Shown: piece after piece, positions 2,748-60,563 of the stretch
Layout of the letters: every line of letters begins with the position of its first letter
How positions within the stretch are numbered: position 1 is the stretch's first letter
NCBI RefSeq assembly: GCF_003018235.1
Contig: NZ_CP027437.1
DNA length: 64,000 nt
DNA from: Escherichia coli
Lineage (GTDB): Bacteria; Pseudomonadota; Gammaproteobacteria; Enterobacterales; Enterobacteriaceae
Direction: 5' to 3' (one strand)
Translations under genes and position numbers: made by a program
Notes under the pieces: generated by a model
The model's input: only the letters and a program-made list of their open reading frames with translations
Database searches by the model: none
Told to the model about the DNA's origin: nothing

Positions 2748-3377
2748 TTACAATATTTGGGGCCAGGGATTGTTTTCCGCCAAATATCGCGTTGCAGAAA
2801 GTCGGTAAATAATTAACACTTTGTCTCCTTTAGTGAAAATTTTTCCTTCTTCAGGCTCCAGTAGTAAATAATGTATTTGGCCAAATTGATCGGTGAGTTT
2901 TCCTTCGCAGGGATTACCTGAAGTGGCTTGATGACCGGTAATTAATGCCATGCTACCAATATATTCTTCTTCTGTAATAGCTGAGCTCTGGTCGCGTGGA
3001 ATCCAGGGCGCAATTATTTTACCGGTATAATGCACCGCAATAATCGTAAACAATAAACTGACAGGAACCACGAACAGGTTCGACAGTGGTGATTGCCAGA
3101 CCATGAGGCAGGCATGCTGCAACAGGATGCCAATAAGACCAAAAAAACCAGCCAGTAAGCAGAGAACGACGAGAGCTGGCAATCTTCCGATATTGAGATA
3201 ATGAAGTGCCTGGCTAATATGACCTGTGGTTATGGAATCATAATGGTCAAGATGTGCATCAAGTGCACCGGAGAGCATGTGACCGCAGATAAGCGCAAAA
3301 ATTTCTAAAAGGCCGATCAACAGTACAAAGGAAATAGCGAAAAGATAAGGGGTGTTATAGTCGGCGAATAAAATCAT
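2748..3377 (-). CDS. yqiJ: YqiJ, NfeD-like inner membrane protein partnered with YqiK
   Basis: 209-aa multi-TM ORF immediately upstream of yqiK in the same orientation. Confidence 0.85.
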
Positions 3378-3645
3378 ATGTCACTCCAATGTCCATTTAG
3401 TGACGCAATATTTACTTTAGGATAGTTTCCTTGCTTACATTTATCTTTGTTAATAATAACACATGTTAGAGAAGTTCTGGAAGAGAAAGTCTTTTAATAT
3501 GGTTTTTTATTTTTCACTAAAAAGTGTGATCGGGGACAATATATTTACGCACGTTATGTTTAAAGGCACTACACTGATTGGGGAATACTGAAATCAGAAA
3601 AAGCATATGGCCTTAAAAGGTATGCGATAACCGGAGGATGTGCTT

Positions 3646-3846
3646 ATGGATCATAGTCTTAATTCTTTAAATAATTTCGATTTCCTGGCGCGTAGTTTTG
3701 CCAGAATGCACGCAGAAGGTCGCCCGGTCGATATTCTGGCCGTTACTGGTAACATGGATGAAGAACATAGAACCTGGTTTTGCGCACGTTATGCCTGGTA
3801 TTGCCAACAGATGATGCAAACCAGAGAACTTGAATTAGAACACTGA
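3646..3846 (+). CDS. glgS: GlgS, small stationary-phase protein
   Basis: 66-aa translation [18 protein letters not shown]... matches GlgS; GGAGGA RBS 8 nt upstream of ATG 3646. Confidence 0.9.
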
Positions 3847-3850
3847 TATT

Positions 3851-3873
3851 ACGGGCCGTCTGGCCCGTTTTTG
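3851..3873. terminator. Bidirectional rho-independent terminator between convergent glgS and ubiK
   Basis: Hairpin CGGGCC-GTCT-GGCCCG followed by TTTTT. Confidence 0.6.
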
Positions 3874-3880
3874 TGTTGCT

Positions 3881-4180
3881 TTATTCTGCTTTATCAATAG
3901 GCGGGATAGCCGGAGGAGATTGAAGATCTGCTACCGAATTATTGCGCGCTTCCAGTTCACTGATGCGCTGCTCCAGTAATGCCAGTTTCTCACGAGTCCG
4001 TAACAGGACTTGCGTCTGTACGTCGAATTCTTCGCGGCTCACCAGATCGAGACGCGTCAGCTGCCCTTGTAGGGTTTGGCGGATTTTTTTCTCCACATCT
4101 TCCCCGAACTCCCTGATTCCTTTAGGCATTGATTCGTGAACCTGGCGAGCGATTTGCTCAATTTTTTTCGGGTCAATCAT
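3881..4180 (-). CDS. ubiK: UbiK (YqiC), ubiquinone biosynthesis accessory factor
   Basis: Translation [32 protein letters not shown]... matches YqiC/UbiK; start taken at internal Met of the longer ORF. Confidence 0.85.
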
Positions 4181-4299
4181 TGTAGTTTCCCTGTACTGAT
4201 AGGTGTTGAGTGCCATTGTAGTGCGATAAGGGTAAGTCATAAACCAGAATTATGTGAAGCTATGCGTTGCTGCCGCTAATCATTAGCGTTATAGTGAAT

Positions 4300-4455
4300 C
4301 CGCTTATTCTCAGGGCGGGGCGAAATTCCCCACCGGCGGTAAATCAACTCAGTTGAAAGCCCGCGAGCGCTTTGGGTGCGAACTCAAAGGACAGCAGATC
4401 CGGTGTAATTCCGGGGCCGACGGTTAGAGTCCGGATGGGAGAGAGTAACGATTCT
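4300..4455 (+). ncRNA. FMN riboswitch (RFN element) in the ribB leader
   Basis: Conserved RFN motifs GGGGCGAAATTCCCCACCGGCGGTAAA ... AGCCCGCGAGCGC ... GGACAGCAGATCCGGTGTAATTCCGGGGCCGACGGTTAGAGTCCGGATGGGAGAGAGT directly upstream of ribB. Confidence 0.85.
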
Positions 4456-4553
4456 GTCGGACATGGACCCGCTCACGTTATTTTGGCTATATGCCGCCAC
4501 TCCTAAGACTGCCCTGATTCTGGTAACCATAATTTTAGTGAGGTTTTTTTACC

Positions 4554-5207
4554 ATGAATCAGACGCTACTTTCCTCTTTTGGTACGCCTTTCGAACGTGT
4601 TGAAAATGCACTGGCTGCGCTGCGTGAAGGACGCGGTGTAATGGTGCTTGATGATGAAGACCGTGAAAACGAAGGCGATATGATCTTCCCGGCAGAAACC
4701 ATGACCGTTGAGCAGATGGCGCTGACCATTCGCCACGGTAGCGGTATTGTTTGCCTGTGCATTACTGAAGATCGCCGTAAACAACTCGATCTGCCAATGA
4801 TGGTAGAAAATAACACCAGCGCCTATGGCACCGGTTTTACCGTGACCATTGAAGCGGCTGAAGGTGTGACTACCGGTGTTTCTGCCGCTGACCGTATTAC
4901 GACCGTTCGCGCAGCGATTGCCGATGGCGCAAAACCTTCTGATCTGAATCGCCCGGGCCACGTTTTCCCACTTCGCGCTCAGGCTGGTGGTGTACTGACG
5001 CGTGGCGGCCATACTGAAGCGACTATTGATCTGATGACGCTGGCAGGCTTTAAACCGGCTGGTGTGCTGTGTGAGCTGACTAATGACGATGGTACGATGG
5101 CGCGTGCGCCAGAGTGCATTGAGTTTGCCAATAAACACAATATGGCGCTCGTGACTATTGAAGACCTGGTGGCTTATCGTCAGGCACATGAGCGTAAAGC
5201 CAGCTGA
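4554..5207 (+). CDS. ribB: RibB, 3,4-dihydroxy-2-butanone 4-phosphate synthase
   Basis: 217-aa ORF matching E. coli RibB; preceded by the FMN riboswitch. Confidence 0.95.
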
Positions 5208-5240
5208 AAATCGCTGCTTAATTTACTGTCTTAATCAAGA

Positions 5241-5275
5241 AACCGAAGTTGTAGCTGGCTTCGGTTTTTATTTTG
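5241..5275 (+). terminator. Rho-independent terminator after ribB
   Basis: Hairpin AACCGAAG...CTTCGGTT followed by TTTATTTTG. Confidence 0.6.
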
Positions 5276-5468
5276 CCCTGCTATGCAAGATGTTAATTCC
5301 GCTTCTCTTTCTATGAGAAAATTTCATTAATATCAGGCATTCTTTTTCATTATGATCAAAATCATATAATTGTTCCGTTATTATGCGACCATATGAATAT
5401 ATCCGAAAAAGGATATGTGAAATTTATGCGCTAAATGTTTAGTATTGTTAAATATTAAGGGTAAAAGG

Positions 5469-5639
5469 ATGTTTATCGCCTGGTACTGGATTGTATTGAT
5501 TGCTCTGGTTGTGGTGGGTTATTTCCTGCATTTGAAACGTTATTGTCGGGCGTTTCGCCAGGACAGAGACGCACTGCTTGAAGCGCGGAACAAATACTTA
5601 AACAGTACGAGAGAAGAGACAGCCGAAAAGGTAGAATAA
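5469..5639 (+). CDS. Small single-pass membrane protein (56 aa), uncharacterised
   Basis: ORF MFIAWYWIVLIALVVVGYFLHLKRY... with one TM helix and charged C-terminus; SD-like TAAGGG upstream; followed by hairpin 5657-5687 plus T-run. Confidence 0.45.
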   Translation: MFIAWYWIVLIALVVVGYFLHLKRYCRAFRQDRDALLEARNKYLNSTREETAEKVE

Positions 5640-5696
5640 GGCTTTCGTGAAGCTGGCAGAAGTTGTCCATGCGCTGGACAACTTCTGATGTTGTTT

Positions 5697-6470
5697 TTAA
5701 CCAATTCCCGCCGTTTGTAGCAGCACTAAACTGAATCCCATCACTGACATTCCACATAGTACGCCATAGCTGGGGTTATTATTAGGGTCAATCTCTTTGG
5801 CGAGCGGCATTAATTCATCAACCGAGAGCGCCACCATAATTCCTGCAACCGCCGCCATGATTGCCGCCATGACCACCGGGGAAATCATGCTACCGAGGAT
5901 TAACCACGCCAGCACACCACCAAGAATTTCTGCCAGTCCAGAAATCCCCGCCCAAAGAATCGCGGTGCGTTTAGACCCCGTTGCCGCGTAAACCGGGCCT
6001 GCAACCGCCAGACCTTCAGGAATATTGTGTAACGCAACGGCCAGTGCGATGCCAAAGCCCAGCTCCAGGTTGCTGCTCGCAGTGACAAAGGTGGCAATCC
6101 CTTCCGGGAAGTTATGCAGACTGATGCCGAGAGTGAGCAGAATGGCTGTGCGCTTGATCGATTTTGGCAACGGCTGCACCGATTTTTGCATTAAATCCTG
6201 CGGATGCGCATGTGGCAACATGCGGTCCAGGCCAAAATAGCCAAGCAGACCGAAGATAAACATTCCATAACCCAACACAGGCGACATTCCTTCGGCTGCT
6301 AGTGCGGCAGGAAGCATTTCCATTAATGAGATGAGCAACATGATCCCCGCCGCAAATCCTAGCGAAAACGCCAGTAAGCGGTTCGAGGGTTTTTGCCCGA
6401 GAACGCCGAGAAACGCGCCAATAAACGTGGCTGCCCCCGCCAGTATGGTCAGAATGAGAGGTACTGACAT
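5697..6470 (-). CDS. zupT: ZupT, ZIP-family zinc/divalent metal transporter
   Basis: 257-aa translation from [16 protein letters not shown]... matches ZupT; start at internal Met of the longer ORF. Confidence 0.9.
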
Positions 6471-6585: not shown

Positions 6586-7401
6586 ATGACACCTTTAGTT
6601 AAGGATATCATCATGTCTTCAACACGTATGCCAGCATTGTTTTTAGGTCACGGTAGTCCGATGAACGTGCTGGAAGATAATTTGTATACCCGCAGCTGGC
6701 AGAAGTTGGGGATGACATTGCCACGCCCGCAAGCGATTGTGGTGGTTTCGGCTCACTGGTTTACCCGTGGAACAGGAGTGACCGCGATGGAGACGCCGCC
6801 CACGATTCATGACTTTGGTGGCTTCCCGCAGGCGCTGTACGACACGCATTATCCTGCTCCGGGTTCGCCTGCGCTGGCACAGCATCTGGTTGAGCTGTTA
6901 GCGCCGGTCCCGGTGACGCTGGATAAAGAAGCCTGGGGCTTTGACCACGGCTCGTGGGGCGTGCTGATTAAGATGTATCCTGACGCCGATATTCCGATGG
7001 TGCAGTTGAGTATCGACAGTAGCAAACCTGCCGCCTGGCATTTCGAAATGGGGCGCAAACTGGCAGCGCTGCGGGATGAAGGAATAATGTTGGTCGCCAG
7101 CGGTAACGTGGTGCATAACCTGCGTACGGTGAAGTGGCACGGTGATAGTTCACCGTATCCTTGGGCGATGTCGTTTAATGAGTATGTAGAAGCGAATCTG
7201 ACGTGGCAAGGGCCGGTAGAGCAGCATCCTCTGGTGAATTATCTCGACCATGAAGGTGGCGCGTTATCTAACCCAACGCCAGAGCACTATCTGCCGTTGT
7301 TGTATGTGTTAGGTGCGTGGGATGGGCAGGAGCCAATTACCATTCCGGTCGATGGTATAGAAATGGGCAGTTTAAGTATGTTGTCGGTGCAGATAGGTTA
7401 A
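6586..7401 (+). CDS. ygiD: YgiD, extradiol ring-cleavage (DOPA 4,5-dioxygenase-like) enzyme
   Basis: 271-aa ORF matching E. coli YgiD. Confidence 0.85.
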   Translation: MTPLVKDIIMSSTRMPALFLGHGSPMNVLEDNLYTRSWQKLGMTLPRPQAIVVVSAHWFTRGTGVTAMETPPTIHDFGGFPQALYDTHYPAPGSPALAQHLVELLAPVPVTLDKEAWGFDHGSWGVLIKMYPDADIPMVQLSIDSSKPAAWHFEMGRKLAALRDEGIMLVASGNVVHNLRTVKWHGDSSPYPWAMSFNEYVEANLTWQGPVEQHPLVNYLDHEGGALSNPTPEHYLPLLYVLGAWDGQEPITIPVDGIEMGSLSMLSVQIG

Positions 7402-7408
7402 TAAAAGA

Positions 7409-7440
7409 ACCCGAAGCCAGAACGACTGGCTTCGGGTGTT
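7409..7440. terminator. Hairpin terminator between convergent ygiD and dsbI
   Basis: Perfect 12-bp stem ACCCGAAGCCAG / CTGGCTTCGGGT. Confidence 0.5.
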
Positions 7441-7446
7441 GCTGAG

Positions 7447-8118
7447 TTAGCCTCTGATGATTTTAAGCGCCCATGCGCCACTCATAATGACCAGCAGCAC
7501 CAGACACATACCAAAAGCCAGCATACAAGCCTGAGCCATATTCATAAAATGCCATGGTGGTAGCAGATACCAGCCTTCAGATTGCTGATACATTTCCACA
7601 AACCACTGTTGCGTGCTGCTCAGTGTGACGCCATCAGGAACGATTGGTGCGTCATAGCCACAATCCCCGGTAGGCTTGAACCAATTTGGTGCCCACTGTG
7701 CCAGCGGCAGGTTAAAGGGAAAAGTTGGATCGGTAGAGCACCCCTGTACGCCAAACAGTGAATCGGGATCCGGATTATGTACTGCATGGTGGATATCGTT
7801 CAGTTTGAGCGAAAACTTCAGTCCCAAAATGCTGCCGTAAAATGCCATCACGCAGCCAATTAGCTTTAGGATGATGTTCTTTGGGTTGATCGCTGCAACC
7901 AATCCTCCAATAACCATCACAAACATGGCGTAGCGAATGTATACACATTGCTCACAGGGTGCCATGTAGAGATAGATCTGGAAAAAAGAGTGCGCCAGGA
8001 TAATTAACGCGCCCATCGCAATGGCCATTAACAACCACAAAAAACGTTGTTCTTGCCATCTTACCAGCGTGTCCACCGGTGAAGTGCGAAGGTCTTTCCA
8101 CATTCCCTTAATACCCAT
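7447..8118 (-). CDS. dsbI: DsbI, DsbB-like membrane thiol oxidase
   Basis: 223-aa multi-TM ORF with CxxC-type cysteines, last gene of the assT-dsbL-dsbI operon. Confidence 0.85.
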
Positions 8119-8132
8119 AGCCTGTTTCCCTG

Positions 8133-8801
8133 TTATTTGCTTGCTAACTCGCGGATAAGGTCTGCCATTGAGTCAATAGATTTAATACTCTTGGTGTAGA
8201 TCAGGTATTTACCATTGACGACATACGCCGGAACGCCCTGGATTTTTGCAACTTCATAAGAGGCTTTCCATTTTTCCAGCGTTTCCTGAACTGCAGGCTC
8301 TTTCAGCGCGGCTTCAAAATCGGCCTGACTCATACCTGCGGCGTCCAGTCCGGTTGTGATAAAGGCAGCCGGATCTTTACCATCAGACCAGCGTTCTTTT
8401 TTGTCATGATAAGCCGCGTAATAAGCAAACTTGGCTTTCTTAAACTGAGAGTTAGCATCAAATAATGAAATACCTGCTGCTTTATCTTTATTGATCAAGA
8501 CCGCAAAGACTTCGCTTGCTTGTTTGCCGTATTCACCTTTTGTTTCCAGATGGAATGGAGTAAAAGCAACGATATCTTTCACTTTTTCCGATACCGGACC
8601 GGTAACCGCTTTGTCGTACTTGTAACAGAACGGGCAGGCGTAGCTAAATACCTTAATCAGCGTTTTGTCGGCATTCGGAATAGGTTTTTCCAGAACCATG
8701 TAATCCGTGCCTTCGGTAAATGCAGAAGCGGTAAATGAAACAGCCAAAGCTGCGGTAAGCAGTATGGTTTTAAATAGTGATGAGATCCCTAATTTCGACA
8801 T
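8133..8801 (-). CDS. dsbL: DsbL, periplasmic DsbA-like thiol:disulfide oxidoreductase
   Basis: 222-aa ORF with signal peptide and CPFC active-site motif. Confidence 0.85.
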
Positions 8802-8818
8802 TTTTATTCCCTTCTTAA

Positions 8819-10615
8819 TTATTTGAACATCTGTTGTGGACGGACTAACAGTGCACGATAGTGAGTCTGATTGGGTTTATCTGACAGCACGTCGATTTCC
8901 ACTTTCACTTCTTTGGTTTTGTAATCGATTTCGTTCAACTTACCGACGGTTGGCTGCCCGACATCGAACAAATGAATAGAACCACCGAAGCCAAACATGG
9001 TGTTACGGTCGGCTTGATATTCAATGATGGAGGTAATCGGGCTATAGAAATCGTAGCCACGTTCTTTACCGTATTCCCACACTTGCTGAACGGTGCCTTT
9101 CTTCTCATCAATCTTATATTCCACAAAGCGGGAGTATTTCATGGTTGGTAAGGCAGGTTGTTCCAGATGACGCCCATCGCCATTATCAAAAATGGTGAGC
9201 GTTCCTTTGCTGGAAATCCAGGCGGTATGCTGGGTGTAGGTAAAGTCGAAGTCTGAGTTTTCGCACAGGCCATTTTCGTTACAGGTAATTGGCTTACCGT
9301 TAGCATCAACCGGTTTCAGCAGCTTGCTGGCCAGCGGTTTTTCCCAACCTTTAGAGGGCGCAAGGATCCATTTCACTTGCTTATCACGACCAATTTTCAC
9401 AACACCCTGGTGGCGAGAGGAGAGGATGATTGAGTCGTCTTTTGCGTCATAGGCGATTGAGTTAACGTGCGCCCAGTTACGACCTGGCCCTACACCCAGC
9501 GCGTCGCCGAACGGTGTATCTGGTTCCAGTTTTGCCTGTTGTCCTGCATGGGCAAGGTCAACGTTAACGCAAACTGCACCTGCATCCAGCGCGCCGAGCA
9601 GTGCATCGCGTTTCGGATCGAGGATCTTGGTCAGATCCCATACATCGACAACGCGACCAGATTTATCGACTTCGAGGATATGGTCACGAATGGTGGTGAC
9701 GTGTACGCCGTCATCGCGACGATAGTTACTCTTACCTACGCGCAACAGTACCGTGCCATTTGGCATCTCAATGGACTCATGAGTAGCGTCAGCAAATCCG
9801 CGCGGTAGTTTGTGATCTTCGAGCACCTGCCCCATCATGTCGAACTCGTACCAGTGCTGACCTTGTACAGCGGTAAAGGTGCCGCGTGGCGTTTCGCGGA
9901 TACCCATCAGATAACCACGCTTGTTGATATCGCGGTCACGACCATCGTAGAAAGTGTCTTGATCCAGCCACCAGCGGTATTCACCTTCGGTATCGACGAT
10001 GAAAGTAAAGGGCGCGATATCAAAAGGTAGTGCGCCGGTTGCCGGACCCGCATCAAGGATACCGGCATTTTTATCTTTCTCACCATGCCAGTGGAGATCG
10101 GAACCTTGGGCGGTAAAGGTGTGGGTATTAACCAGATAGAGGCGATCTTCAAAACCCGGTGCGACTTTAATAACTTTGGTCTGTTGTAAATCGGAGATAG
10201 AGCGGTTATCCATGTAATTATTGACGATGGCCGAAGTGTGCACCACATAATCATCTTTCATGACCTTGCCGTTTTCTTTCCACTCAACGGTCACTTTGTT
10301 AGCAAATTTCTGATAAAGACCAAAAATCGGTACACCATCGTAAGTTTTTAGTGATTCCTGACCCACGGGATAGCTGATTTCTACGCCTTTTTCGCCCTTC
10401 CCATGGACGGTAACTTTGACGTCAGAAATAACATGGCTATCTAAGTCAACCAAAGCGGTCAGTGGTGCATTGCCGTAGGGATCGACAATGACCGCACCCA
10501 GTTGCCCGGCAGGCGGTGCGGGTTTAAAACCTGCTGCCATCACCCCCGGTGCTGACAAACCCAGAGTTATCGCCACAGCTCCGGCTACCAGAGTTTTTCT
10601 ATATTTATCAAACAT
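8819..10615 (-). CDS. assT: AssT, periplasmic arylsulfate sulfotransferase
   Basis: 598-aa ORF with signal peptide; matches the ASST family; first gene of the three-gene operon. Confidence 0.9.
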   Translation of the reverse strand: MFDKYRKTLVAGAVAITLGLSAPGVMAAGFKPAPPAGQLGAVIVDPYGNAPLTALVDLDSHVISDVKVTVHGKGEKGVEISYPVGQESLKTYDGVPIFGLYQKFANKVTVEWKENGKVMKDDYVVHTSAIVNNYMDNRSISDLQQTKVIKVAPGFEDRLYLVNTHTFTAQGSDLHWHGEKDKNAGILDAGPATGALPFDIAPFTFIVDTEGEYRWWLDQDTFYDGRDRDINKRGYLMGIRETPRGTFTAVQGQHWYEFDMMGQVLEDHKLPRGFADATHESIEMPNGTVLLRVGKSNYRRDDGVHVTTIRDHILEVDKSGRVVDVWDLTKILDPKRDALLGALDAGAVCVNVDLAHAGQQAKLEPDTPFGDALGVGPGRNWAHVNSIAYDAKDDSIILSSRHQGVVKIGRDKQVKWILAPSKGWEKPLASKLLKPVDANGKPITCNENGLCENSDFDFTYTQHTAWISSKGTLTIFDNGDGRHLEQPALPTMKYSRFVEYKIDEKKGTVQQVWEYGKERGYDFYSPITSIIEYQADRNTMFGFGGSIHLFDVGQPTVGKLNEIDYKTKEVKVEIDVLSDKPNQTHYRALLVRPQQMFK

Positions 10616-11067
10616 GGATATATCTCCTTATATAACGCAAATATATAATAATGATGAATATCGACTGTTGAGAGGGTGCTAATAAATTCGTTGCGTGAAT
10701 ATAAATATTAATTCAATAAAGAGTGAGAATGCTTTTGTGTTTCTTTTAAATATGTTGTTATCCGGTGAAACAAATATTTATGTTTAATGGATAGTAGGGG
10801 GGCAATATATCATTCACAATGTTCAATATTGTGTAGTGTGATCTCTGCAACATTGTTTTTTAATTATTAAATTTAAATCTGGTGAGATAAAAGTAAAGTA
10901 TTTAAATAATATCAATTGGTTATGTCGTGAAGTGTTCACTTACTTTAATTACAATATCGCTTGCATATGACGATTTAACATTAAATTGAATGTTAATGTT
11001 AAATAAAGGTTGGATATGTATGTGTTTATATATTGATGGGAATTATGAATGGTGGATTATAAGAGAT

Positions 11068-11090
11068 TGCCCCGCTTATCGGGGCAATAT
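11068..11090 (-). terminator. Hairpin downstream of ygiC
   Basis: Stem TTGCCCCG / CGGGGCAA with 5-nt loop just past the ygiC stop. Confidence 0.4.
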
Positions 11091-11099
11091 TAAGCTGCA

Positions 11100-12260
11100 T
11101 TATTCAACAAAAATATGCGGATAAAACCGAGACATATCCTGGGTGATCAATGCACGGTCTTCACGAATGCCAATTCCGGCAGGTTGATCGTTCACCAGCC
11201 AGCTACCAATCAGCATATAGCTGTCGCCAAATTTCGGTAACGGGTGGAATTGCTGAACAATCATCCCTTCTTCGCCATACGGACCTTCCGCTGCTTCAAT
11301 GGTTTTGCCGTTCTCAATGATCGACACGTTTGCGCCTTCACGGGAGAAGATCGGTTTAACCACATATTTTTCCATTTGCGGATGATCATCTTCCGCAAAA
11401 TAAGCGGGCAGCAGGTTCGGGTGATTCGGGAACATCTCCCACAACAGCGGTAGAAGCGCTTTGTTGGAGATAATGCTCTTCCACGCCGGTTCCAGCCAGC
11501 GTACGCCTGCATCCTCCAGCTTGGTGGAGAACATCTCACGCAGCATAAATTCCCACGGATACAGCTTGAACAGGTTAGAAATCACCTGATCTTGTAAATC
11601 CGTGAACTGACCTTTTTCGCCTAAACCGATATCGTCGATGTAGAGGAATTCAGTAGCGATTTCAGCTTCTGTCGCGCAGTCCTGCAAATACTGGATGGTT
11701 CCGCGATCTTCCACCGTGTCGCGACAGCAGGTGAGATGCAGCAACTGGAAGCCATACTGTTCACGCAACTCGACAAAGCGATCGATTAGCTTTTCTTGCA
11801 GACTGTTAAACTGGTCGCTGCCTTCCGGCAGGTTACCGGCGTTAAGCTGATCTTCCAGCCAGATCCACTGAAAGAATGCGGCTTCATACAGTGACGTTGG
11901 CGTATCGGCGTTATTTTCCAGAAGTTTAGGTTCGCCAGTACCATCCCACGCCAGATCAAGACGCGAATAAAGCGATGGCTGGTGAGTCAGCCATGACTGG
12001 CGCACAAAACTCCAGGTGTGTTTTGGAATGCGGAATTTGGTCATCAGCTCATCGCTGGCGATCACTTTTTCAACCACTTTCAGGCACATCTGGTGCAGTT
12101 CGGCGGTGACTTCTTCCAGCTTTTCAACCTGGGCGAGGGTCAACTTGTAGTAAGCATCTTCACACCAGTACGGTTCGCCGTACATGGTGTGAAAATTGAA
12201 ACCGTATTCGTGGGCTTTTTCGCGCCAGTCCGGGCGCTCGGTAATACTGACTCTTTCCAT
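11100..12260 (-). CDS. ygiC: YgiC, glutathionylspermidine synthase-like ATP-grasp protein
   Basis: 386-aa ORF matching E. coli YgiC. Confidence 0.9.
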
Positions 12261-19240: not shown

Positions 19241-21382
19241 TCAAAATTCCATTTTCACCGTGAATTGCACTTCACGCGGATCGCCAATCTGATTCCCCAG
19301 ATTATTTGTGGCGATGGAAGAGGTGTAATACGTTTTATCAAACAGGTTTTTGACGTTTAATTGCAGTGTGACCGGATACTGCAATTTCATTTTGTATGCG
19401 GCGAAGGCATCGGCAACGAAATAGCCTGGCAGATAATAGTCAGCCCCATTGGTTGCCGAACGACGGCTTACGCCATGTCCACCACCGCCAAACGTCAGTG
19501 TGTTATTGCCTGGCATGTTATGAATGTCATAGGTCAGGAATAGCGAACCGGTATGACGAGGAACATTCGGCAATGGTTTCCCTGCATAATCAGGATCCTC
19601 CAGAACCTTAGCATCGGTATAGCCGTAGCTGGCAATGATATTAATGTTTTCAGTTAATGCTCCCGCAAGGTCGACTTCTACCCCTCTTGAACGAACGCGG
19701 CCTGCCGTTTTGGCGATGGTTTCATCACCAATACTTTCGGTATACAACACGTTACGTTTATGGATATCAAACAGCGCAATATCTGCGGTTATACCATCGA
19801 ACAGCTCGAATTTTGCCCCGACTTCGTAAGCATTAGATGATTCCGGTGGAAGATCGCCAATGTAGCTGGCAATTGACGATTGCGGCATAAATGTTTGCGA
19901 ATAATTAGCAAATAAGGATACCGATGGCGTCAGTTTGTAGACTAACCCCAGTTTGGGCGTCCATTGTTCATCGCGGCTGTCAGTATTGACATTAAAAGGA
20001 CGGCCTTTACCCGCATACTGCGTGTAATACTGATAGCGGATCCCGGCGACGGCAATCCAGTTATCGGTCAGATAGAGTGCGTCCTGTGCATACGCTGAGT
20101 AGCTCTCCTGTTTGATCGTCTGATCACTGTCCGACGCCGAAACCGTTGTACATTTGCTGGTATTACCATAAACAGGGTTGTAGATATTGAAATCTTTAGC
20201 TTTTTTACAGCGAATCATATCTGTGCGCAGAAGATCATAATATTCATATGACACCCCACCCAGAATCTCATTATAGAACCCAGCAATATCAACATTCCCT
20301 TGCAGATCCGCACGAGTAGAATGCATACGCTGGGTAGATCCCTGAGTTGCATCAACACGCCGTGTCAGCGTTCCTGTCGTTGCATCATACGCGGTAACGC
20401 GAGCCTGATTGTCGCTGTATTTATCCTGGCTGTAGCTGTAATCAAAGCGCGCTGTCCACTGGCTATTGAGATGATATTCTGCGTTGAGTTGCGCCAGATC
20501 GGACTGACCATCTGTAATATTAAACGGTTCGTCAAAACGTATTTTTCGATCAACGTTTACGGGCTGTTTCGTCGTAAGGTCGAAAATCGTTCCACGATCG
20601 AACGGAGTTTTATAGTCCCGATGGGAATAGAGCATAGTTACTGTTGCATTATCACCAAACCAGGTGAGTGACGGGGCAATAAATGTACTGCGCTCTTTAC
20701 CGAAGTTTCGCCAGTAATCTTCATCCTGCACTTCCCCCGTCAGGCGGTATGCCAGCTGAGTGCCTTCAATGGGACCTGTGATATCAAGTTGCCCAGTGCC
20801 TCCGCCAAAACTGGAGGAGGTGGCTGAAACCGAACCATGGAATGTTTTTTCCGGGCGCTTGGTCACGACGTTAATCAGTCCACCAGGATCGAGAATGCCA
20901 TACAGCGTGGAGGCCGGACCTTTTAGCACTTCCACACGTTCTGTGGCGGCGTTGAAACTGCGAGGAAGTACAGTTCGCAGGCCGTTGGTCATGATGGAGC
21001 CATCCCGGTTAGCACCAAACCCACGACGTACAAAGGCGTCCTGAGTTCCGCCTAATGTATTGGTCTGTACCACGTTACTGACGTTATAAAGCGCTTCATC
21101 CAGCGTCGTCGCATTCTGATTTTCCAGAACCTGATCGCTAACCGTATTGACCACCTGCGGGATATCCAACATCGGCATATCGGTTAATGTCGCCGTGGAA
21201 GTGCTCAGAGGTTGATAACCATCGGTCGCCTCAGTTGCGGTATTTGCATCCGCTGTAACAGTGATTGTTTCGCCATCTTTGGTCGTTGCAGTGTCGGTTG
21301 CATGAATCATTGGTGCTGCAAAGAGCAGTGAAAAGAGCGCCCGACCTTTGATTCCTGAGAATGAAGGTGTGAACTTAGCCAT
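19241..21382 (-). CDS. TonB-dependent outer membrane receptor (siderophore/metal-chelate type)
   Basis: 713-aa ORF; signal peptide; TonB-box-like ETITVTA; plug plus beta-barrel; C-terminal aromatic residue (…KMEF). Confidence 0.9.
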   Translation of the reverse strand: MAKFTPSFSGIKGRALFSLLFAAPMIHATDTATTKDGETITVTADANTATEATDGYQPLSTSTATLTDMPMLDIPQVVNTVSDQVLENQNATTLDEALYNVSNVVQTNTLGGTQDAFVRRGFGANRDGSIMTNGLRTVLPRSFNAATERVEVLKGPASTLYGILDPGGLINVVTKRPEKTFHGSVSATSSSFGGGTGQLDITGPIEGTQLAYRLTGEVQDEDYWRNFGKERSTFIAPSLTWFGDNATVTMLYSHRDYKTPFDRGTIFDLTTKQPVNVDRKIRFDEPFNITDGQSDLAQLNAEYHLNSQWTARFDYSYSQDKYSDNQARVTAYDATTGTLTRRVDATQGSTQRMHSTRADLQGNVDIAGFYNEILGGVSYEYYDLLRTDMIRCKKAKDFNIYNPVYGNTSKCTTVSASDSDQTIKQESYSAYAQDALYLTDNWIAVAGIRYQYYTQYAGKGRPFNVNTDSRDEQWTPKLGLVYKLTPSVSLFANYSQTFMPQSSIASYIGDLPPESSNAYEVGAKFELFDGITADIALFDIHKRNVLYTESIGDETIAKTAGRVRSRGVEVDLAGALTENINIIASYGYTDAKVLEDPDYAGKPLPNVPRHTGSLFLTYDIHNMPGNNTLTFGGGGHGVSRRSATNGADYYLPGYFVADAFAAYKMKLQYPVTLQLNVKNLFDKTYYTSSIATNNLGNQIGDPREVQFTVKMEF

Positions 21383-21481
21383 TTAGTCTGTTATCCCAAA
21401 AACTCACGGATTGTCGTGAGTGAAAATTGTTTCTTGTTGCTCACTAAGCACTATCCGTTTGTTATTTCACCATCGGATATG

Positions 21482-21500
21482 TAATTGAGAATCATTCAAC
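21482..21500. promoter_or_regulatory. Fur-box-like site in the divergent receptor/ABC promoter region
   Basis: TAATTGAGAATCATTCAAC; core TGAGAATCATT matches Fur consensus TGATAATCATT at 10 of 11 positions. Confidence 0.4.
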
Positions 21501-21755
21501 CATGCGGTGATGTAGTAGTAAATGAGAAATAACAAAAAATTGCTACATGTGTTTTTATGAGAGGTTAATGCAATTCAATTGATGGTAATTTATTAATATT
21601 TAATGGTTTTATTTTTATCTTTAAAAATATTTCACCTGTTATTTACCTTGTTTTTGTATGGCTTTTAACTTCTTGACTACTACATTTTGTGGCGTCAAAC
21701 TCTCAAAGGAGAATGAGTTTTATTTTTGTTTGTCTTTGATTAAGTTGGCGTACAC

Positions 21756-22565
21756 GTGGCACATAACGCAAAAGGGCAGGGGCTGATCCTCGACAATGTT
21801 TCTGCCGGGTATCACACGAAAATCATTGTTGATGGCGTTTCTTTCTCCGTTCCCACAGAAAAAATGACCGTTCTGGTTGGGGCAAACGGCTGTGGAAAGT
21901 CGACGTTGCTCAGCACCATTGCACGTATCTTGCAACCTATGGGCGGCTCGATATTGCTGGATGGTAAAGCGATTCACGAGCAACCAACGAAAGCGTTATC
22001 CCGTAGACTTGGGATCTTGCCGCAGTCGCCATTATTGCCGGAGGGCTTAACCGTTTATGAACTGGTGTCGCGTGGGCGTTTTCCCTGGCAGAATTTCATT
22101 CGTCAATGGAGCGACGCCGACGAGCAGGCGGTAGAAGAGGCCCTGAAATTAACCGGTACGCAGGAGTTTGCACATTTACCTGTTGAAAAACTTTCTGGTG
22201 GGCAGCGCCAGCGTTGCTGGATTGCGATGGTGTTGGCGCAAAAGACGCCTTATATCCTGCTGGATGAACCCACAACCTGGCTTGATTTACGTTATCAGGT
22301 TGAAATTCTTGAGTTATTACATGATTTAACGCGTCATCACGGGCGTACAGTCGTCGTGGTGTTGCATGATCTGAATTTTGCCGTCAATTATGGTGATACG
22401 TTGATATTTTTACGCCAGGGGAAAGTGGTGCGTGTGTTGAATGAGGGGGAGCATTGCACGCCTGAGCTGGTAAAAGCTGTCTTTGACGTTGATGTTCACG
22501 CATCAATAAATCCTCTGACGGGAAAGCCGTTCTTCATGCCGTTTCGTGGTGTAGAAAAAGTATGA
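21756..22565 (+). CDS. ABC transporter ATP-binding protein (FepC/FecE-like)
   Basis: Walker A GANGCGKST, signature LSGGQRQR, Walker B ILLDEPT, H-loop; GTG start. Confidence 0.85.
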   Translation: MAHNAKGQGLILDNVSAGYHTKIIVDGVSFSVPTEKMTVLVGANGCGKSTLLSTIARILQPMGGSILLDGKAIHEQPTKALSRRLGILPQSPLLPEGLTVYELVSRGRFPWQNFIRQWSDADEQAVEEALKLTGTQEFAHLPVEKLSGGQRQRCWIAMVLAQKTPYILLDEPTTWLDLRYQVEILELLHDLTRHHGRTVVVVLHDLNFAVNYGDTLIFLRQGKVVRVLNEGEHCTPELVKAVFDVDVHASINPLTGKPFFMPFRGVEKV

Positions 22566-23545
22566 TGCGCACAGGGCTGGTTACTGTAATTTTCCTCGCC
22601 TTACTGCTGGTGGGATGCGTGGTATATCCAGGGATTGGTGCCCGATTTATTGCACCACAAACGGTGTTGCAGGCATTTCTTCATTTTGAACCGCAAAACT
22701 TCGATCACAACGTAATTGTAAGACTCCGTTTGCCGCGTTTAGCGGCAGCATTGCTTACCGGTGCTTCTCTTGGAGTTGCTGGTGCTTTGTTGCAGGCTGT
22801 CATTCGTAACCCATTGGGGGAGCCACATATTTTAGGCTTAAATGCCGGAGCCGCTCTTGCTGTCGTTGCTGCCAGTGCGCTTGGGCTGGCCTTTCCGGTT
22901 GGACGCCCACTGCTGGCATCTACGGGCGGCGCGTTATTGTTCCTGTTGATATTGCTGCTTTCCTCCGCAGGGCGTTCAGGGTTAACGCCAATGAAAGTTA
23001 CTTTATGCGGCGTGGCGCTATCGGCGTTCGTGTCCTCAATAACGGCTGCAATCCTGATTCTTGACGAACAAACACTGCTGGCGATGCGGACATGGCTAGC
23101 AGGTGATTTAGCGGGGCAGGATTGGGCGACGCTGGGTACGTCCGCCTGGTTTTCTCTGGGGGGGGTTGTGTTAGCCATTTACCTTGCGCCCTCTCTTAAC
23201 ATGTTGGCACTGGGTGATCGCATGGCGCAGGGGCTGGGCGTCTCGGTACTCCGCACGCGAACATTCACTCTGCTTGCGATCGCGTTGCTCTGTGGCGCAG
23301 CCGTATCGATTGCTGGCCCCATTGGTTTTGTCGGTCTGCTAGTACCGCAGATTGTCAGGCGTCTGGTATCTGCGGATCTGCGCGTTCTGCTCCCTCTTTC
23401 AGCTTGTGTCGGTGCCTTACTGCTATTACTGGCAGATATTATTGCCCGGACGCTTTTCACGCCCCATGAGCTGGCGACCGGTGTCATGACGGCGTTAGTT
23501 GGTGCGCCCGTTTTTGTCATTATGGCGACGAGGATGTTCAAATGA
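22562..23545 (+). CDS. ABC transporter permease, FecCD family
   Basis: 327-aa multi-TM ORF; start overlaps the ATPase stop. Confidence 0.85.
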   Translation: MMRTGLVTVIFLALLLVGCVVYPGIGARFIAPQTVLQAFLHFEPQNFDHNVIVRLRLPRLAAALLTGASLGVAGALLQAVIRNPLGEPHILGLNAGAALAVVAASALGLAFPVGRPLLASTGGALLFLLILLLSSAGRSGLTPMKVTLCGVALSAFVSSITAAILILDEQTLLAMRTWLAGDLAGQDWATLGTSAWFSLGGVVLAIYLAPSLNMLALGDRMAQGLGVSVLRTRTFTLLAIALLCGAAVSIAGPIGFVGLLVPQIVRRLVSADLRVLLPLSACVGALLLLLADIIARTLFTPHELATGVMTALVGAPVFVIMATRMFK

Positions 23546-24591
23546 GTCGGATAATGAACGTCGGGCTACGTCCACTACGTGTTGGTAAGTTTTCGACACT
23601 GGTACGCCCTAAAAATCTGGTGTTGCTTGGTGGGCTGTTTCTGTTTGCGGTTGGAATACTGATATTCGGTCTGATGCATGGTTCTTTTTCTGTCCCAGCA
23701 TCGGAAGTAGGACGAGCGTTGTTTGCTCCAGAAAACGTAAGCACAGACGCACGTTATATTGTGCAGGATATTCGCTTGCCGAGAGTCATCATGGCATTGC
23801 TATGCGGAGCCATGTTAGGTATGGCGGGGGCCGCGATGCAATCCATTGCGCGTAACGGCCTTGCCGATCCTGGTTTAATCGGCGTCAAAGAAGGATGTAG
23901 CGTGGCGGTGCTGTGGCTGATTTTCCAGTTTCCAATGCTGGGAATGTTCTGGCGTCCAGTGGCTGGTCTTGCTGGTGGCTTGTTGGTGGCTTTAATCGTG
24001 ATTTTTTGTGCGCGCGATATTTCCCGCCCGCGATTTGTTCTGATTGGTATTGGTGTTTCCTGGTTTTTCGCCGCCGGTATCGGTGTATTTATGACCACTG
24101 CAGATGTTCGAGATGTACAAACTGCATTGATGTGGTTATCGGGAAGCCTGCATGCAGCTAACTGGATGTTAGTCGGTATTTCAGCCTGTTGGATGTTGCC
24201 AGCCGCTCTTTTATTGCTGTTCACCGCCAGGACGGCAGATATCGCTCTGCTTGGTCATCAGGTTGCAACCGGGTTAGGGGTGAATAGTTCTCGTCTGGCG
24301 TTGTTACGTGTCGCCGCACCAATAATCCTGACCGCCGTCTGCGTTTCGTGTGTTGGTAACATCGGTTTTGTCGGATTGATAGCACCCCATATATCACGTT
24401 TTATTCTACGTGGCGGGCAGACGACATTACTGCTGGGGAGCGCCGTATCGGGGGCGTTGTTAGTCATCCTGGCGGATAGCATTGGTCGTTTGGCTTTTTT
24501 GCCTTTGCAACTGCCTGCCGGAATCATTATTTCATTGATTGGTGGACCATTCTTTTTGCTACTGCTCTGGCAGCGCAGGAACAGTTTTTAA
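23542..24591 (+). CDS. ABC transporter permease, FecCD family (second)
   Basis: 349-aa multi-TM ORF; start overlaps the previous stop. Confidence 0.85.
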   Translation: MSRIMNVGLRPLRVGKFSTLVRPKNLVLLGGLFLFAVGILIFGLMHGSFSVPASEVGRALFAPENVSTDARYIVQDIRLPRVIMALLCGAMLGMAGAAMQSIARNGLADPGLIGVKEGCSVAVLWLIFQFPMLGMFWRPVAGLAGGLLVALIVIFCARDISRPRFVLIGIGVSWFFAAGIGVFMTTADVRDVQTALMWLSGSLHAANWMLVGISACWMLPAALLLLFTARTADIALLGHQVATGLGVNSSRLALLRVAAPIILTAVCVSCVGNIGFVGLIAPHISRFILRGGQTTLLLGSAVSGALLVILADSIGRLAFLPLQLPAGIIISLIGGPFFLLLLWQRRNSF

Positions 24592-24601
24592 TGGGAGTTA
24601 T

Positions 24602-25549
24602 ATGCGTTTATTTTTTTCTCTGCTGATACTGTTGTCATTCTTTGCCCGAGCGACAGAACCTGTTCAGGTCTTTACTGATGATTTAGGGCGCAAAGTCACT
24701 GTTCCTGCTCATCCAAAGAGAATTGTCTCTTTACACGATCTTGATATCACTATTCCTCTGATTGAGCTCGGTGTACCTCCTGTCGCCAGCCACGGGCGAA
24801 CCCGGCCTGACGGTAGCCATTTCATTCGATCAGGCGCGTTATTGACAGGTGTCGACTTTGATAATTCATCGATCGCTTTTATTGGCACCGCTGATATTGA
24901 TATTGAAGCGATTGTGGCGGCAAAGCCTGACCTGATCATCACAGAACCGACCCGTAATACGCCCATTGAACAACTGGAAAAAATTGCGCCCACGGTGAGC
25001 ATTGATCATCTCAAAGGAGGCGCGCCAGAAATCTACCGCAAGCTGGCAGAACTTACAGGAACGCAGTCGCAGCTGGCGATACTTGAACGCCGCTATCAGG
25101 CACAAATCAATGCGCTGAAGGCGACGCTGGACAGCCAAAAAATAACGGTATCGGTGATTCAGGCAAATCAGGGAAAAATTAATGTGATGCATAGCTATCA
25201 TTCGCTGGGGCGGGTATTACGCGATGCTGGTTTTCGCTTTCCGCCGCTGATTGAGAGCATTCCTGAAGGTGGGCGAATGGGTGTGAGCGCAGAGCGTTTA
25301 CCTGAACTGGATGCCGATTTTGTTTTTGCAACCTGGCGCGGTGACACCGGTGGTAAACCTCAGGATGAGCTGGCAGCAATGGAAAAAGTCATGCCGGGAT
25401 GGTGTCAGTTTCTGACGGCCTGTCGTTCCGGGCGCTATGTGCTGATTTCTCGTGAAGAGGCGATTTCTAACTCCTTTGCATCTCTGGGGCTGATGGCTGC
25501 GCAGATACAATCACAAATTGCGGGACGACCTCTACCGGAGGCTAAATGA
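24602..25549 (+). CDS. Periplasmic substrate-binding protein (siderophore/cobalamin-type)
   Basis: 315 aa from MRLFFSLLILLSFFARA with signal peptide; GGAG RBS 4 nt upstream of ATG 24602. Confidence 0.8.
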   Translation: MRLFFSLLILLSFFARATEPVQVFTDDLGRKVTVPAHPKRIVSLHDLDITIPLIELGVPPVASHGRTRPDGSHFIRSGALLTGVDFDNSSIAFIGTADIDIEAIVAAKPDLIITEPTRNTPIEQLEKIAPTVSIDHLKGGAPEIYRKLAELTGTQSQLAILERRYQAQINALKATLDSQKITVSVIQANQGKINVMHSYHSLGRVLRDAGFRFPPLIESIPEGGRMGVSAERLPELDADFVFATWRGDTGGKPQDELAAMEKVMPGWCQFLTACRSGRYVLISREEAISNSFASLGLMAAQIQSQIAGRPLPEAK

Positions 25550-26433
25550 TCCAGAAAGACAAAACGCGGGTTGATATTTATGGTGAGTGTTTTCGCACTC
25601 GCGCGAGTCAGTTAACGCCTGGGTTAAGAGCTGTCGCAAGCTACATTAATGAGCATCGTGAAGTGGTACTCGAGCAAACGGCGATGGAAATTGCGGCCAC
25701 GTTGAACACTTCCGATGCCACAGTTATCAGGGCTATACAGGCTCTGGGGTTTGCCGGGCTGCGTGATCTGAAACGCACACTGGAACAGTGGCTTGGTCCA
25801 GCCCTTAGTTCCAGCGAAAAGATGTCTACGACGGTGAGTAACTTGACGTGCGATGTTAACACCGCAATCGACTTTGTTCTTGAAGGGCATTTGTATACTT
25901 GTAATGTCCTGTCAGAGCCTGAAAACCGCCACGCGCTTGAGCAAGCTGTAGCGTTGTTGGTGCAGGCACGGCAAGTCGCTATTTTTGGCATTGGCGCTTC
26001 GGGTATCCTGGCGGACTATACCGCACGACTATTCAACCGCATAGGTTTGCCTGCCACGGCACTAAACCGTACGGGTATTGGCCTTGCCGAGCAACTGATC
26101 GCGCTTCAACGTGGCGATGTTCTGATCATGATGGCGCAAAAATCTGCGCACCGGGAAGGGCTGACAACGCTTCGTGAGGCGAGGCGGCTGGGGATCCCTG
26201 TTATTTTGCTGACAAACGCGCTGGATTCACGTTTTAGCAAAGACGCCAGTATCGTGATTCATGTTCCGCGCGGGGATGAAAAGGGGAAAACGCCACTACA
26301 TGGTACGGTATTGTTGTGTCTGGAAATGATTGTCTGGTCGGTAGCTTCCGCAGTGCCGCAGCGTGCGGTTAAAACCATTAAGCGAATTAACGATTTCCAT
26401 CGAGGACTGAAAACGGGAAGAAAGAATGGCTAA
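25546..26433 (+). CDS. RpiR/MurR-family transcriptional regulator (N-terminal HTH, C-terminal SIS phosphosugar-binding domain)
   Basis: 295-aa ORF; HTH region then SIS-like VAIFGIGASG...; ATGA overlap with the binding-protein stop. Confidence 0.8.
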   Translation: MIQKDKTRVDIYGECFRTRASQLTPGLRAVASYINEHREVVLEQTAMEIAATLNTSDATVIRAIQALGFAGLRDLKRTLEQWLGPALSSSEKMSTTVSNLTCDVNTAIDFVLEGHLYTCNVLSEPENRHALEQAVALLVQARQVAIFGIGASGILADYTARLFNRIGLPATALNRTGIGLAEQLIALQRGDVLIMMAQKSAHREGLTTLREARRLGIPVILLTNALDSRFSKDASIVIHVPRGDEKGKTPLHGTVLLCLEMIVWSVASAVPQRAVKTIKRINDFHRGLKTGRKNG

Positions 26434-58856: not shown

Positions 58857-59105
58857 ATGTGTATTGGCGTTCCAGGCCAGGTGCTGGCTGTCGGTGAAGA
58901 TATTCACCAGCTTGCGCAGGTTGAAGTATGTGGTATCAAGCGCGACGTGAATATCGCCCTGATTTGTGAAGGTAACCCTGCCGATCTGCTGGGCCAGTGG
59001 GTGCTGGTACACGTCGGATTTGCCATGAGCATCATCGACGAAGATGAAGCCAAAGCCACATTAGACGCGCTGCGCCAAATGGATTACGACATTACCAGCG
59101 CGTGA
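58857..59105 (+). CDS. hybG: HybG, HypC-like hydrogenase maturation factor
   Basis: 82-aa ORF beginning MCIGVPGQV. Confidence 0.9.
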
Positions 59106-59704: not shown

Positions 59705-59808
59705 GGTGCGGACACTGCCAGTCTGACCTGTTAAAGGCTGCAGGGCTGGCCAGAAGCACGCTGTACTACCAGCTGTCACTGCAGAAGGCTAAGGACAAGT
59801 ATGCTGAT

Positions 59809-60563
<755 letters not shown>

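Follow-up and report, generated by a model that had tools for sequence, protein, structure and literature searches.

The closest described counterpart of the locus analyzed here is the assT-dsbL-dsbI operon of uropathogenic Escherichia coli (UPEC) CFT073, reportedly characterized by Grimshaw et al. in 2008 and Malojcic et al. in 2008 and 2014 (PDB 3ELQ and 3C7M). The present copy has the same three genes in the same order at the same chromosomal site and shares all catalytic and redox residues, but it differs by T257M in AssT and three substitutions in DsbL, and it sits in a non-B2 background, with flanks nearest to ST38-type genomes and with flanking proteins, YgiC among them, that match K-12 at 100% identity. 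The operon of Salmonella enterica (Typhimurium and Typhi) is orthologous, with 85 to 87% protein identity, and has the conserved promoter core and the ribosome-binding site in common with ours, but its neighbors are yqiD and ribB in place of ygiC and ygiD. The Salmonella operon is repressed by H-NS and activated by LeuO, and the structure of its DsbL is available (PDB 3L9U).

More remote is Campylobacter astA, which encodes an aryl sulfotransferase of about 46% identity near DsbL-like and DsbI-like genes (PMC4152235); this locus differs in that its products are distant homologues, its gene order and spacing are other, and it has multiple DsbA-like copies. The canonical DsbA/DsbB system of K-12 has the same folds and cysteine chemistry as DsbL/DsbI. 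However, K-12 DsbA carries CPHC where DsbL has CPFC, DsbL is only remotely related to its paralogue DsbA (E about 1e-12), and, unlike DsbA/DsbB, the DsbL/DsbI pair is dedicated to, and co-transcribed with, its substrate.

Gene content and predicted function

Positions 7402 to 11099 of the window (the whole 64,000-nucleotide stretch of DNA that was analyzed) make up the entire space between the convergent stop codons of ygiD and ygiC. ORF coordinates place three intact minus-strand ORFs there (Table 1), in which Pfam detects, from left to right, DsbB, DSBA, and Arylsulfotran_N plus Arylsulfotrans domains. A sequence-only reading had described a 3.7-kb, three-gene, minus-strand unit at this site, encoding a sulfotransferase with its own DsbA-like and DsbB-like proteins. 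The ORFs and the Pfam and NCBIfam matches confirm the unit, and the family matches, PDB alignments, and DsbI equivalog score uphold the three identities. The left-flank gene carries the ygiD annotation in K-12, GMF065, and M1/5.

The dsbL gene lies between assT and dsbI and starts 17 nt past the assT stop codon, with GAAGGG upstream of its ATG; dsbI starts 14 nt past the dsbL stop codon. These short gaps, the ribosome-binding sites, and a single strong terminator are the marks of an operon. Judging from sequence, we consider it highly probable that the locus is a chromosomal tricistronic operon, assT-dsbL-dsbI, that it has long resided in the ygiC-ribB neighborhood of Enterobacteriaceae, and that the empty allele is derived.

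Table 1. Features of the assT-dsbL-dsbI locus and its borders (window coordinates)
Feature	Position	Strand	Description	Evidence
ygiD	6613..7401	+	Left flank, core gene	NCBIfam NF007914 equivalog (4,5-DOPA-extradiol-dioxygenase), 531.7 bits
Intrinsic terminator of operon	7409..7437	-	Perfect inverted repeat; 12-bp stem, 8 G-C pairs, T-tail	Terminator scan
dsbI	7447..8118	-	223 aa; DsbB-like inner-membrane quinone-linked reoxidase of DsbL (predicted)	NCBIfam NF003304
dsbL	8133..8801	-	222 aa; DsbA-like periplasmic dithiol oxidase (predicted)	Pfam DSBA (PF01323)
assT	8819..10615	-	598 aa; periplasmic PAPS-independent aryl-sulfate sulfotransferase precursor (predicted)	Pfam PF17425 and PF05935
assT upstream region	10616..11099	-	484 bp, AT-rich regulatory/leader region, 28.7% GC	Composition, sequence, alignments
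Conserved core	10790..10860	-	AAAACAATG..GATCACACT..ATTG	Alignments
Palindrome in conserved core	10814-10841			Inverted-repeat search
ygiC terminator hairpin	11067-11087		Inside assT upstream region	
ygiC	11100..12260	-	Right flank, core gene	Pfam GSP_synth, E 3.9e-164

AssT consists of a 27-aa signal peptide, an Ig-like N-domain, and a beta-propeller, and both Pfam models match at full length (PF17425, 99.8 bits; PF05935, 455.5 bits, E 1.7e-136). The comparison with UPEC proteins that the sequence-only reading had proposed bears out its assignment: residues 28 to 598 are identical to the crystallized CFT073 enzyme (PDB 3ELQ) at 570 of 571 positions, the sole difference being T257M. The hydrophobic 27-residue N terminus is missing from the crystallized mature chain, as would be expected of an export signal. 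A residue check found catalytic His436 and all of the sulfuryl-binding residues (His252, His356, Asn358, Arg374, and Thr501) listed in PMC13426309, as well as Cys418 and Cys424 (Cys445 and Cys451 of the precursor), which are predicted to form a disulfide. Position 257, five residues past His252, is Met here, whereas each of the 14 other orthologues examined has Thr. T257M is a rare change, and activity could differ with it; given its nearness to catalytic His252, it could additionally alter substrate use.

DsbL matches UPEC DsbL (PDB 3C7M) at 192 of 195 residues (E 1.2e-125), with three substitutions, and a motif check places its CPFC active site at residues 56 to 59; CPFC is the motif given for DsbL of UPEC and Salmonella (PMC8405906). 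DsbI scores 418.8 bits on the DsbI equivalog NF003304 (cutoff, 212) and 82.8 bits on the DsbB equivalog model, under its cutoff of 157. Its Cys55/Cys58 and Cys127/Cys153 align with Cys41/Cys44 and Cys104/Cys130 of DsbB (3E9J chain C).

The functions proposed here would be carried over from the near-identical CFT073 proteins, for which they are established. AssT would be exported to the periplasm, where it would pass a sulfuryl group from a phenolic sulfate ester to another phenol in a ping-pong reaction via a sulfo-His436 intermediate. The enzyme would require the Cys418-Cys424 disulfide, which DsbL, through CPFC, would form, and the membrane protein DsbI would reoxidize DsbL. The mechanism and regulation are described in PMC13426309, PMC7810732, PMC8405906, and PMC4264507. 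Transcription probably begins in the AT-rich stretch upstream of assT and stops at the hairpin past dsbI. By analogy with findings in Salmonella and CFT073, ordinary laboratory conditions probably leave the operon silent, under control of the H-NS/LeuO type.

An alternative reading makes the locus a decaying silent remnant, functionless in the present strain. The CFT073 copy is unexpressed in standard conditions and dispensable for bladder colonization (PMC7810732), assT or dsbL is broken by IS insertions in some other genomes, and T257M hits an invariant AssT position. We nevertheless regard decay as most improbable. The three ORFs are full length, with no stop codons, and their products are 98.5 to 99.8% identical to the crystallized proteins; all 15 AssT orthologues examined are intact at 598 aa; and conservation extends to the promoter core, the ribosome-binding site, and the terminator.

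Distribution and origin

Among the 5,425 complete E. coli genomes that gave a match (the set is given as 5,426), 1,508 carry the cluster at ygiC/ygiD and 3,917 share a common empty junction; the carriers were characterized through named strains. In K-12 (KLY; MG1655 at 100%), the ygiD-ygiC spacer is a 37-bp hairpin only, so the synteny comparison finds the two genes adjacent and the cluster missing there, as the sequence-only reading had stated. The cluster is likewise missing from O157:H7, O111:H8, and O6:H16 strains and from A/B1-type strains.

The sequence-only reading took the cluster to be inserted, and the main alternative to an old resident is indeed that ExPEC lineages gained a 3.7-kb islet by horizontal transfer, which landed between ygiD and ygiC. 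Absence from the strains just named would fit such an islet, as would junctions located exactly at both stop codons, the non-homologous filler of the empty allele, and a literature that calls the system UPEC-associated (PMC6067686). The GC content is also somewhat low (45.3% in the cluster and 28.7% in its upstream region, versus 50.7% in the window), and of the features of a horizontal island this is the one that points that way. However, no direct or inverted repeats were found at the boundaries, no integrase or transposase ORFs at the cluster, and no tRNA in the 64 kb.

The relatives tell against an islet as well. The ygiC/ygiD site also holds the cluster in E. albertii, E. whittamii, Escherichia sp. 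MOD1-EC7003, and Pseudocitrobacter, and in Citrobacter, Salmonella (including arizonae), and Intestinirhabdus it is found about 2 kb off, flanked by yqiD and ribB; the scan returned no E. fergusonii, E. marmotae, or E. ruysiae, and the comparison leaves those species out. Cluster identities across relatives (98>94>89>87%) run parallel to those of the flanks, and the promoter core is common to both arrangements. Finally, the empty allele is one and the same throughout the 3,917 genomes that have it, which suits one loss better than many gains. We therefore judge horizontal acquisition very unlikely and the description "inserted" unsupported.

Since the cluster occupies the same or an adjacent site in relatives, diverges as its flanks do, and shows no mobility signatures, the K-12 state is most simply explained as a loss, which is more parsimonious than an insertion. 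The direction is based on parsimony and the accepted tree of E. coli and Escherichia, without a computed reconstruction. K-12-type E. coli would accordingly carry a single derived empty allele, with a 37-bp hairpin in place of 3,698 bp. A search for homology between this spacer and the cluster ends, the ygiD/dsbI terminator, or the ygiD-ygiC spacers of Citrobacter and Salmonella gave nothing convincing. As the spacer is not recognizably derived from either cluster end, the event was not a simple deletion.

We also considered whether K-12 could descend straight from a Salmonella-type arrangement, with ygiC and ygiD adjacent and the cluster lost beside ribB. This was rejected, since K-12 and cluster-bearing E. 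coli are collinear across the yqiD-ribB junction.

Regulatory sequences and allele history

The operon terminator hairpin begins 7 nt past the ygiD stop codon, and at this distance it probably works in both directions; it is kept in E. coli, E. albertii, and Escherichia sp. At the other end of the operon, the conserved core of the upstream region is kept in Escherichia, Pseudocitrobacter, C. youngae, and S. arizonae amid divergent surroundings. It includes a candidate promoter, TTGTGA (10819-10814) and TACTAT (10796-10791) with a 17-nt spacer, proposed solely from conservation: at its threshold, a sigma-70 consensus scan called no promoter on the minus strand ahead of assT, and TTGTGA-17-TACTAT, matching at 8 of 12 positions, falls below that threshold. 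An Rfam scan of 3 to 16 kb found nothing in the cluster, its only match being the ribB FMN riboswitch. Control of the assT upstream region by H-NS and LeuO is known in Salmonella Typhi (literature cited in PMC4264507), and by analogy the present upstream region may be under the same control.

This region occurs in E. coli as two sharply separated alleles. Across the 484 bp, 1,246 carriers are at least 95% identical to the present genome and 262 are at 60 to 80%, with none between, while the adjacent coding sequence differs by just 0.4 to 2% and the palindromic core is kept as far as Salmonella. The minority allele shares 88.8% identity with its E. whittamii counterpart and, because of this, was possibly introgressed from another Escherichia species. 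The two alleles could correspond to two regulatory states of the operon, with different silencing or induction. That the assT regulatory region is under lineage-specific or diversifying evolution strikes us as unlikely.

The alleles also bear on the history of the copy in the present genome, which may not be strictly clonal: homologous recombination in the flanking core genes could have introduced it, as a recombinant allele, from a different lineage that also has the cluster. Divergence is patchy along the window, where tracts at 0.0% versus GMF065 alternate with tracts at 2 to 5%. The upstream region is a B2-type allele (96.9% to M1/5), whereas over the downstream 22 kb the nearest genomes are of the ST38 type, and these have the other allele (75.7%). 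Cluster-wide identity reaches at least 99% in just 2 of the 1,508 carriers. On the other hand, the complete-genome set lacks the source genome and hence its clonal frame, and the mosaicism is spread across the window, not particular to the cluster. We consider recombination a tentative possibility, short of an even chance; it bears on allele history alone and leaves the identity of the locus, an old resident operon, unchanged.

Pathotype and significance

The cluster had also been taken to support an ExPEC-like background for this genome. The carriers include UTI89, ABU 83972, and JJ1887, but also NC101 (a mouse commensal), possum, koala, marmot, and river isolates, and a strain of O169:H41, the serotype of ETEC ST182. 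With wildlife, commensal, and enteric-serotype strains among the 1,508 carriers, the genes are not a UPEC- or ExPEC-specific set, and as a marker of such a background they are weak. The flanks of the window are closest to strain 28Eco12 (about 99.2%), which belongs to ST38; a position near ST38 is compatible with an ExPEC-associated lineage, without proving one. The cluster marks lineage (non-A, non-B1), not pathotype.

The assT-dsbL-dsbI operon, its structures, and its mechanism are already published, and the locus therefore has little significance beyond annotation. What changes is its reading: by parsimony, the cluster is ancestral in Escherichia and was lost once in K-12-type lineages, and its presence by itself is no basis for calling a genome ExPEC-like. 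A small, testable lead on the regulation of an operon that is probably silent under normal conditions comes from its two strongly divergent promoter alleles.

Genes and products of the cluster

The interval 7402-11099 is exactly the gap from the ygiD stop codon to the ygiC stop codon, and the ORF listing places three consecutive minus-strand genes in it, enclosed by these convergent core genes. Their identification from sequence alone as an arylsulfate sulfotransferase (ASST) with DsbA-like and DsbB-like partners is correct, as judged by Pfam, NCBIfam, and near-identity to PDB 3ELQ and 3C7M. The 223-aa protein scored 418.8 bits against the NCBIfam DsbI equivalog (cutoff, 212) but 82.8 against DsbB, under the cutoff of 157. 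AssT residues 28-598 match the CFT073 enzyme (PDB 3ELQ) at 570/571 positions, and DsbL residues 28-222 match uropathogenic E. coli (UPEC) DsbL (PDB 3C7M) at 192/195; Salmonella DsbL (PDB 3L9U) is also close to DsbL of the window.

Features of the cluster and of the surrounding window
Feature	Position	Strand	Remarks
FMN riboswitch	4302-4450		upstream of ribB; Rfam RF00050, 120.9 bits; expected
ygiD	6613-7401	+	flanking core gene, convergent with ygiC
Terminator	7437..7409	-	12-bp stem, 8 G-C pairs, T-tail
dsbI	7447-8118	-	223 aa; Pfam DsbB; NCBIfam DsbI equivalog
dsbL	8133-8801	-	222 aa; Pfam DSBA
assT	8819-10615	-	598 aa; Pfam Arylsulfotran_N and Arylsulfotrans (E 1.7e-136)
assT upstream region	10616-11099		484 bp, 28.7% GC
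Candidate assT promoter	10819-10791	-	TTGTGA-17 nt-TACTAT
Palindrome	10814-10841		inside conserved block ~10790-10860
ygiC terminator hairpin	11067-11087		within assT upstream region
ygiC	11100-12260	-	flanking core gene, convergent with ygiD
Iron-siderophore uptake cluster	19241-26433		accessory; between parE and ygiN
hybG	58857-59105
IS3-family element	59174-60531		just past hybG; ORFs of 176 aa and 240 aa

The residues reported for AssT catalysis (the sulfo-histidine His436, with His252, His356, Asn358, Arg374, and Thr501) and for its Cys418-Cys424 disulfide (PMC13426309) were all found by direct residue check. DsbL has the CPFC motif described for this protein (PMC8405906), and in alignment, DsbI Cys55/58 and Cys127/153 match DsbB Cys41/44 and Cys104/130. 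AssT codon 284 (9764-9766) encodes Met at mature-chain position 257, five residues past catalytic His252, where CFT073 and 14 other orthologues, Escherichia to Edwardsiella, have Thr; T257M recurs in the comparison genome GMF065.

The biology of assT-dsbL-dsbI is already known, and because the proteins are near-identical to those studied, the same mechanism would be expected here. AssT would be exported and then form a dimer in the periplasm, moving sulfuryl groups among phenolic compounds by a ping-pong route via sulfo-His436 without PAPS, while DsbL would introduce its single disulfide and membrane-bound DsbI would reoxidise DsbL; DsbA/DsbB would be able to replace DsbL/DsbI.

Distribution in E. 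coli and origin of the K-12 state

As the sequence-only reading had stated, ygiD and ygiC are neighbours in K-12 without the cluster, separated only by a 37-bp spacer with a short hairpin (TACCGGATGGCGAGTGCCATCCGGTA; 100% in MG1655). Among 5,426 complete E. coli genomes, 5,425 gave a match. The cluster is present in 1,508 of these, always as one chromosomal copy at the ygiC/ygiD site, and in 3,917 the K-12-type junction is contiguous across the whole 278-bp probe. Since the two counts add up to exactly 5,425, there is a single kind of empty allele. For one cluster match, the record is classed as a plasmid. Insertion sequences interrupt the cluster in some genomes (NZ_OZ039398.1 and NZ_CP063492.1), with ISEc52 splitting assT and IS1A splitting dsbL, which shows occasional decay of the cluster.

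That reading had described the cluster as inserted; it is better described as retained, and lost in K-12-type strains. When one genome of each species was scanned for AssT orthologues with dsbL and dsbI, the cluster lay between ygiC and ygiD in E. albertii (AssT 94%), E. whittamii (98%), Escherichia sp. MOD1-EC7003 (94%), and Pseudocitrobacter (89%), this site being used in every retrieved Escherichia species carrying it; the scan returned no E. fergusonii, E. marmotae, or E. ruysiae. The order ygiC-ygiD-zupT-yqiD-[assT dsbL dsbI]-ribB was found in Citrobacter (85-87%), Salmonella arizonae (86%), and Intestinirhabdus (81%), and other contexts in Edwardsiella, Budvicia, Leminorella, and Limnobaculum. 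As identity to YgiC, YgiD, ZupT, and TolC declines, so does identity to the cluster proteins. No tRNA was found within the 64 kb, no mobility genes appear with the cluster in the ORF listing, and no repeats were found at its boundaries. These shared locations, parallel identities, and lack of mobility signs argue that the operon was in this neighbourhood before Escherichia, Salmonella, and Citrobacter split. Phylogroups A and B1 are nested inside E. coli, and with the cluster at ygiC/ygiD in the retrieved Escherichia species, the K-12 state is most simply explained by one loss. This reading has caveats: the 37-bp filler has no recognisable derivation from the cluster ends or the conserved dsbI/ygiD terminator, and the cluster has 45.3% GC versus 50.7% for the window.

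Immediately upstream of assT, in divergent orientation, a small ORF resembling yqiD is present in Citrobacter, Salmonella, Intestinirhabdus, and Pseudocitrobacter (41% identity in the last; 5488-5643 in comparison locus L007, ~5250-5610 in L009-L015 and L020), whereas in Escherichia yqiD remains beside zupT; the [ygiD-zupT] and [assT-dsbL-dsbI] blocks have thus exchanged places between the two arrangements. That K-12 descends directly from the Salmonella-type order was considered and rejected, as K-12 and cluster-bearing E. coli are collinear at the yqiD-ribB junction.

The region around ribB and zupT is a hotspot for changes in gene content. There is no yqi-type fimbrial operon at 3377-5700 of the window; the K-12 glgS-ubiK interval holds yqiGHI-ygiL with IS2 inside the usher gene, and the GMF065 ribB-yqiD interval holds a fimbrial operon. 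Elsewhere in the window, the siderophore cluster (TonB-dependent receptor, FecE-like ATPase, two FecCD-type permeases, binding protein, RpiR-type regulator) has no counterpart in K-12, and the stretch at 11.1-33 kb is covered to at least 80% in about a third of genomes.

Operon anatomy and the assT upstream region

The genes are separated by 17 and 14 nt, each is preceded by a purine-rich ribosome-binding site (AAGGAG before assT), and the unit is described as tricistronic (PMC7810732; PMC4264507). The terminator at its end lies 9 nt past the dsbI stop and 7 nt past the ygiD stop and thus probably ends transcripts from both sides.

Upstream of assT, no consensus promoter on the minus strand exceeded the scan threshold. 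A block at ~10790-10860 (AAAACAATG..GATCACACT..ATTG..TACTATC) stands out as conserved from divergent surroundings in Escherichia, Pseudocitrobacter, Citrobacter youngae, and Salmonella arizonae; the candidate promoter placed there is predicted from sequence. In CFT073, the operon is silent under standard conditions; it is up-regulated in the urine of infected mice, yet dispensable for bladder colonisation (PMC7810732). In Salmonella Typhi, it is repressed by H-NS and activated by LeuO (PMC4264507). The AT-rich upstream region would fit a silent operon under such control.

Two forms of this region occur in E. coli: 1,246 carriers have an allele with 95% or higher identity to that of the window, 262 have one with only 60-80%, and no carrier falls between these classes, although differences in the assT coding sequence next to it amount to just 0.4-2%. 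The ST38 strain 28Eco12 has the minority form, at 75.7% identity to the window, and the E. whittamii region is 88.8% identical to this minority form.

Genome background and pathotype

Against the 5,426 genomes, the best identity for every segment tested across the window was at most 99.6%. The cluster is 99.6% identical to that of GMF065, 99.5% to that of MEI003 (another E. coli genome), 98.0-98.4% to those of a handful of other strains, including an O169:H41 strain, and 96-97.6% to those of the bulk of carriers, B2 strains included. The 22 kb downstream reach 99.3% (NZ_OW967178.1), with 99.2% to many more genomes, including 28Eco12, and 39-64 kb at most 98.5% to any genome. Counted per 500 bp, the difference from each reference switches between stretches at 0.0% and stretches at 2-16%, a recombination mosaic; together with the absence of any match above 99.6%, this indicates a poorly represented, mosaic source lineage. 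The window and K-12 encode ZupT, YgiC, YgiB, and TolC proteins of 100% identity. The background is compatible with a phylogroup D-like lineage. The 240-aa ORF of the IS3-family element has rve-like integrase sequence; matches to 39-64 kb carry an annotated IS3 family transposase, which the five best hits name as IS3-like IS1397 family.

The proposal that the cluster supports an ExPEC-like background is weakened by the range of carriers. UTI89, ABU 83972, clone D i2, Seattle 1946, and JJ1887 represent UPEC and relatives; other carriers are murine NC101, possum, koala, marmot, bird, and river isolates, 28Eco12, and one strain of O169:H41, the serotype of ETEC ST182 in phylogroup E (PMC8454413). 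Going by the named strains, about two thirds of carriers are B2-type; K-12, O157:H7, O111:H8, and O6:H16 ETEC lack the cluster. The cluster alone says little about pathotype; its presence follows lineage.
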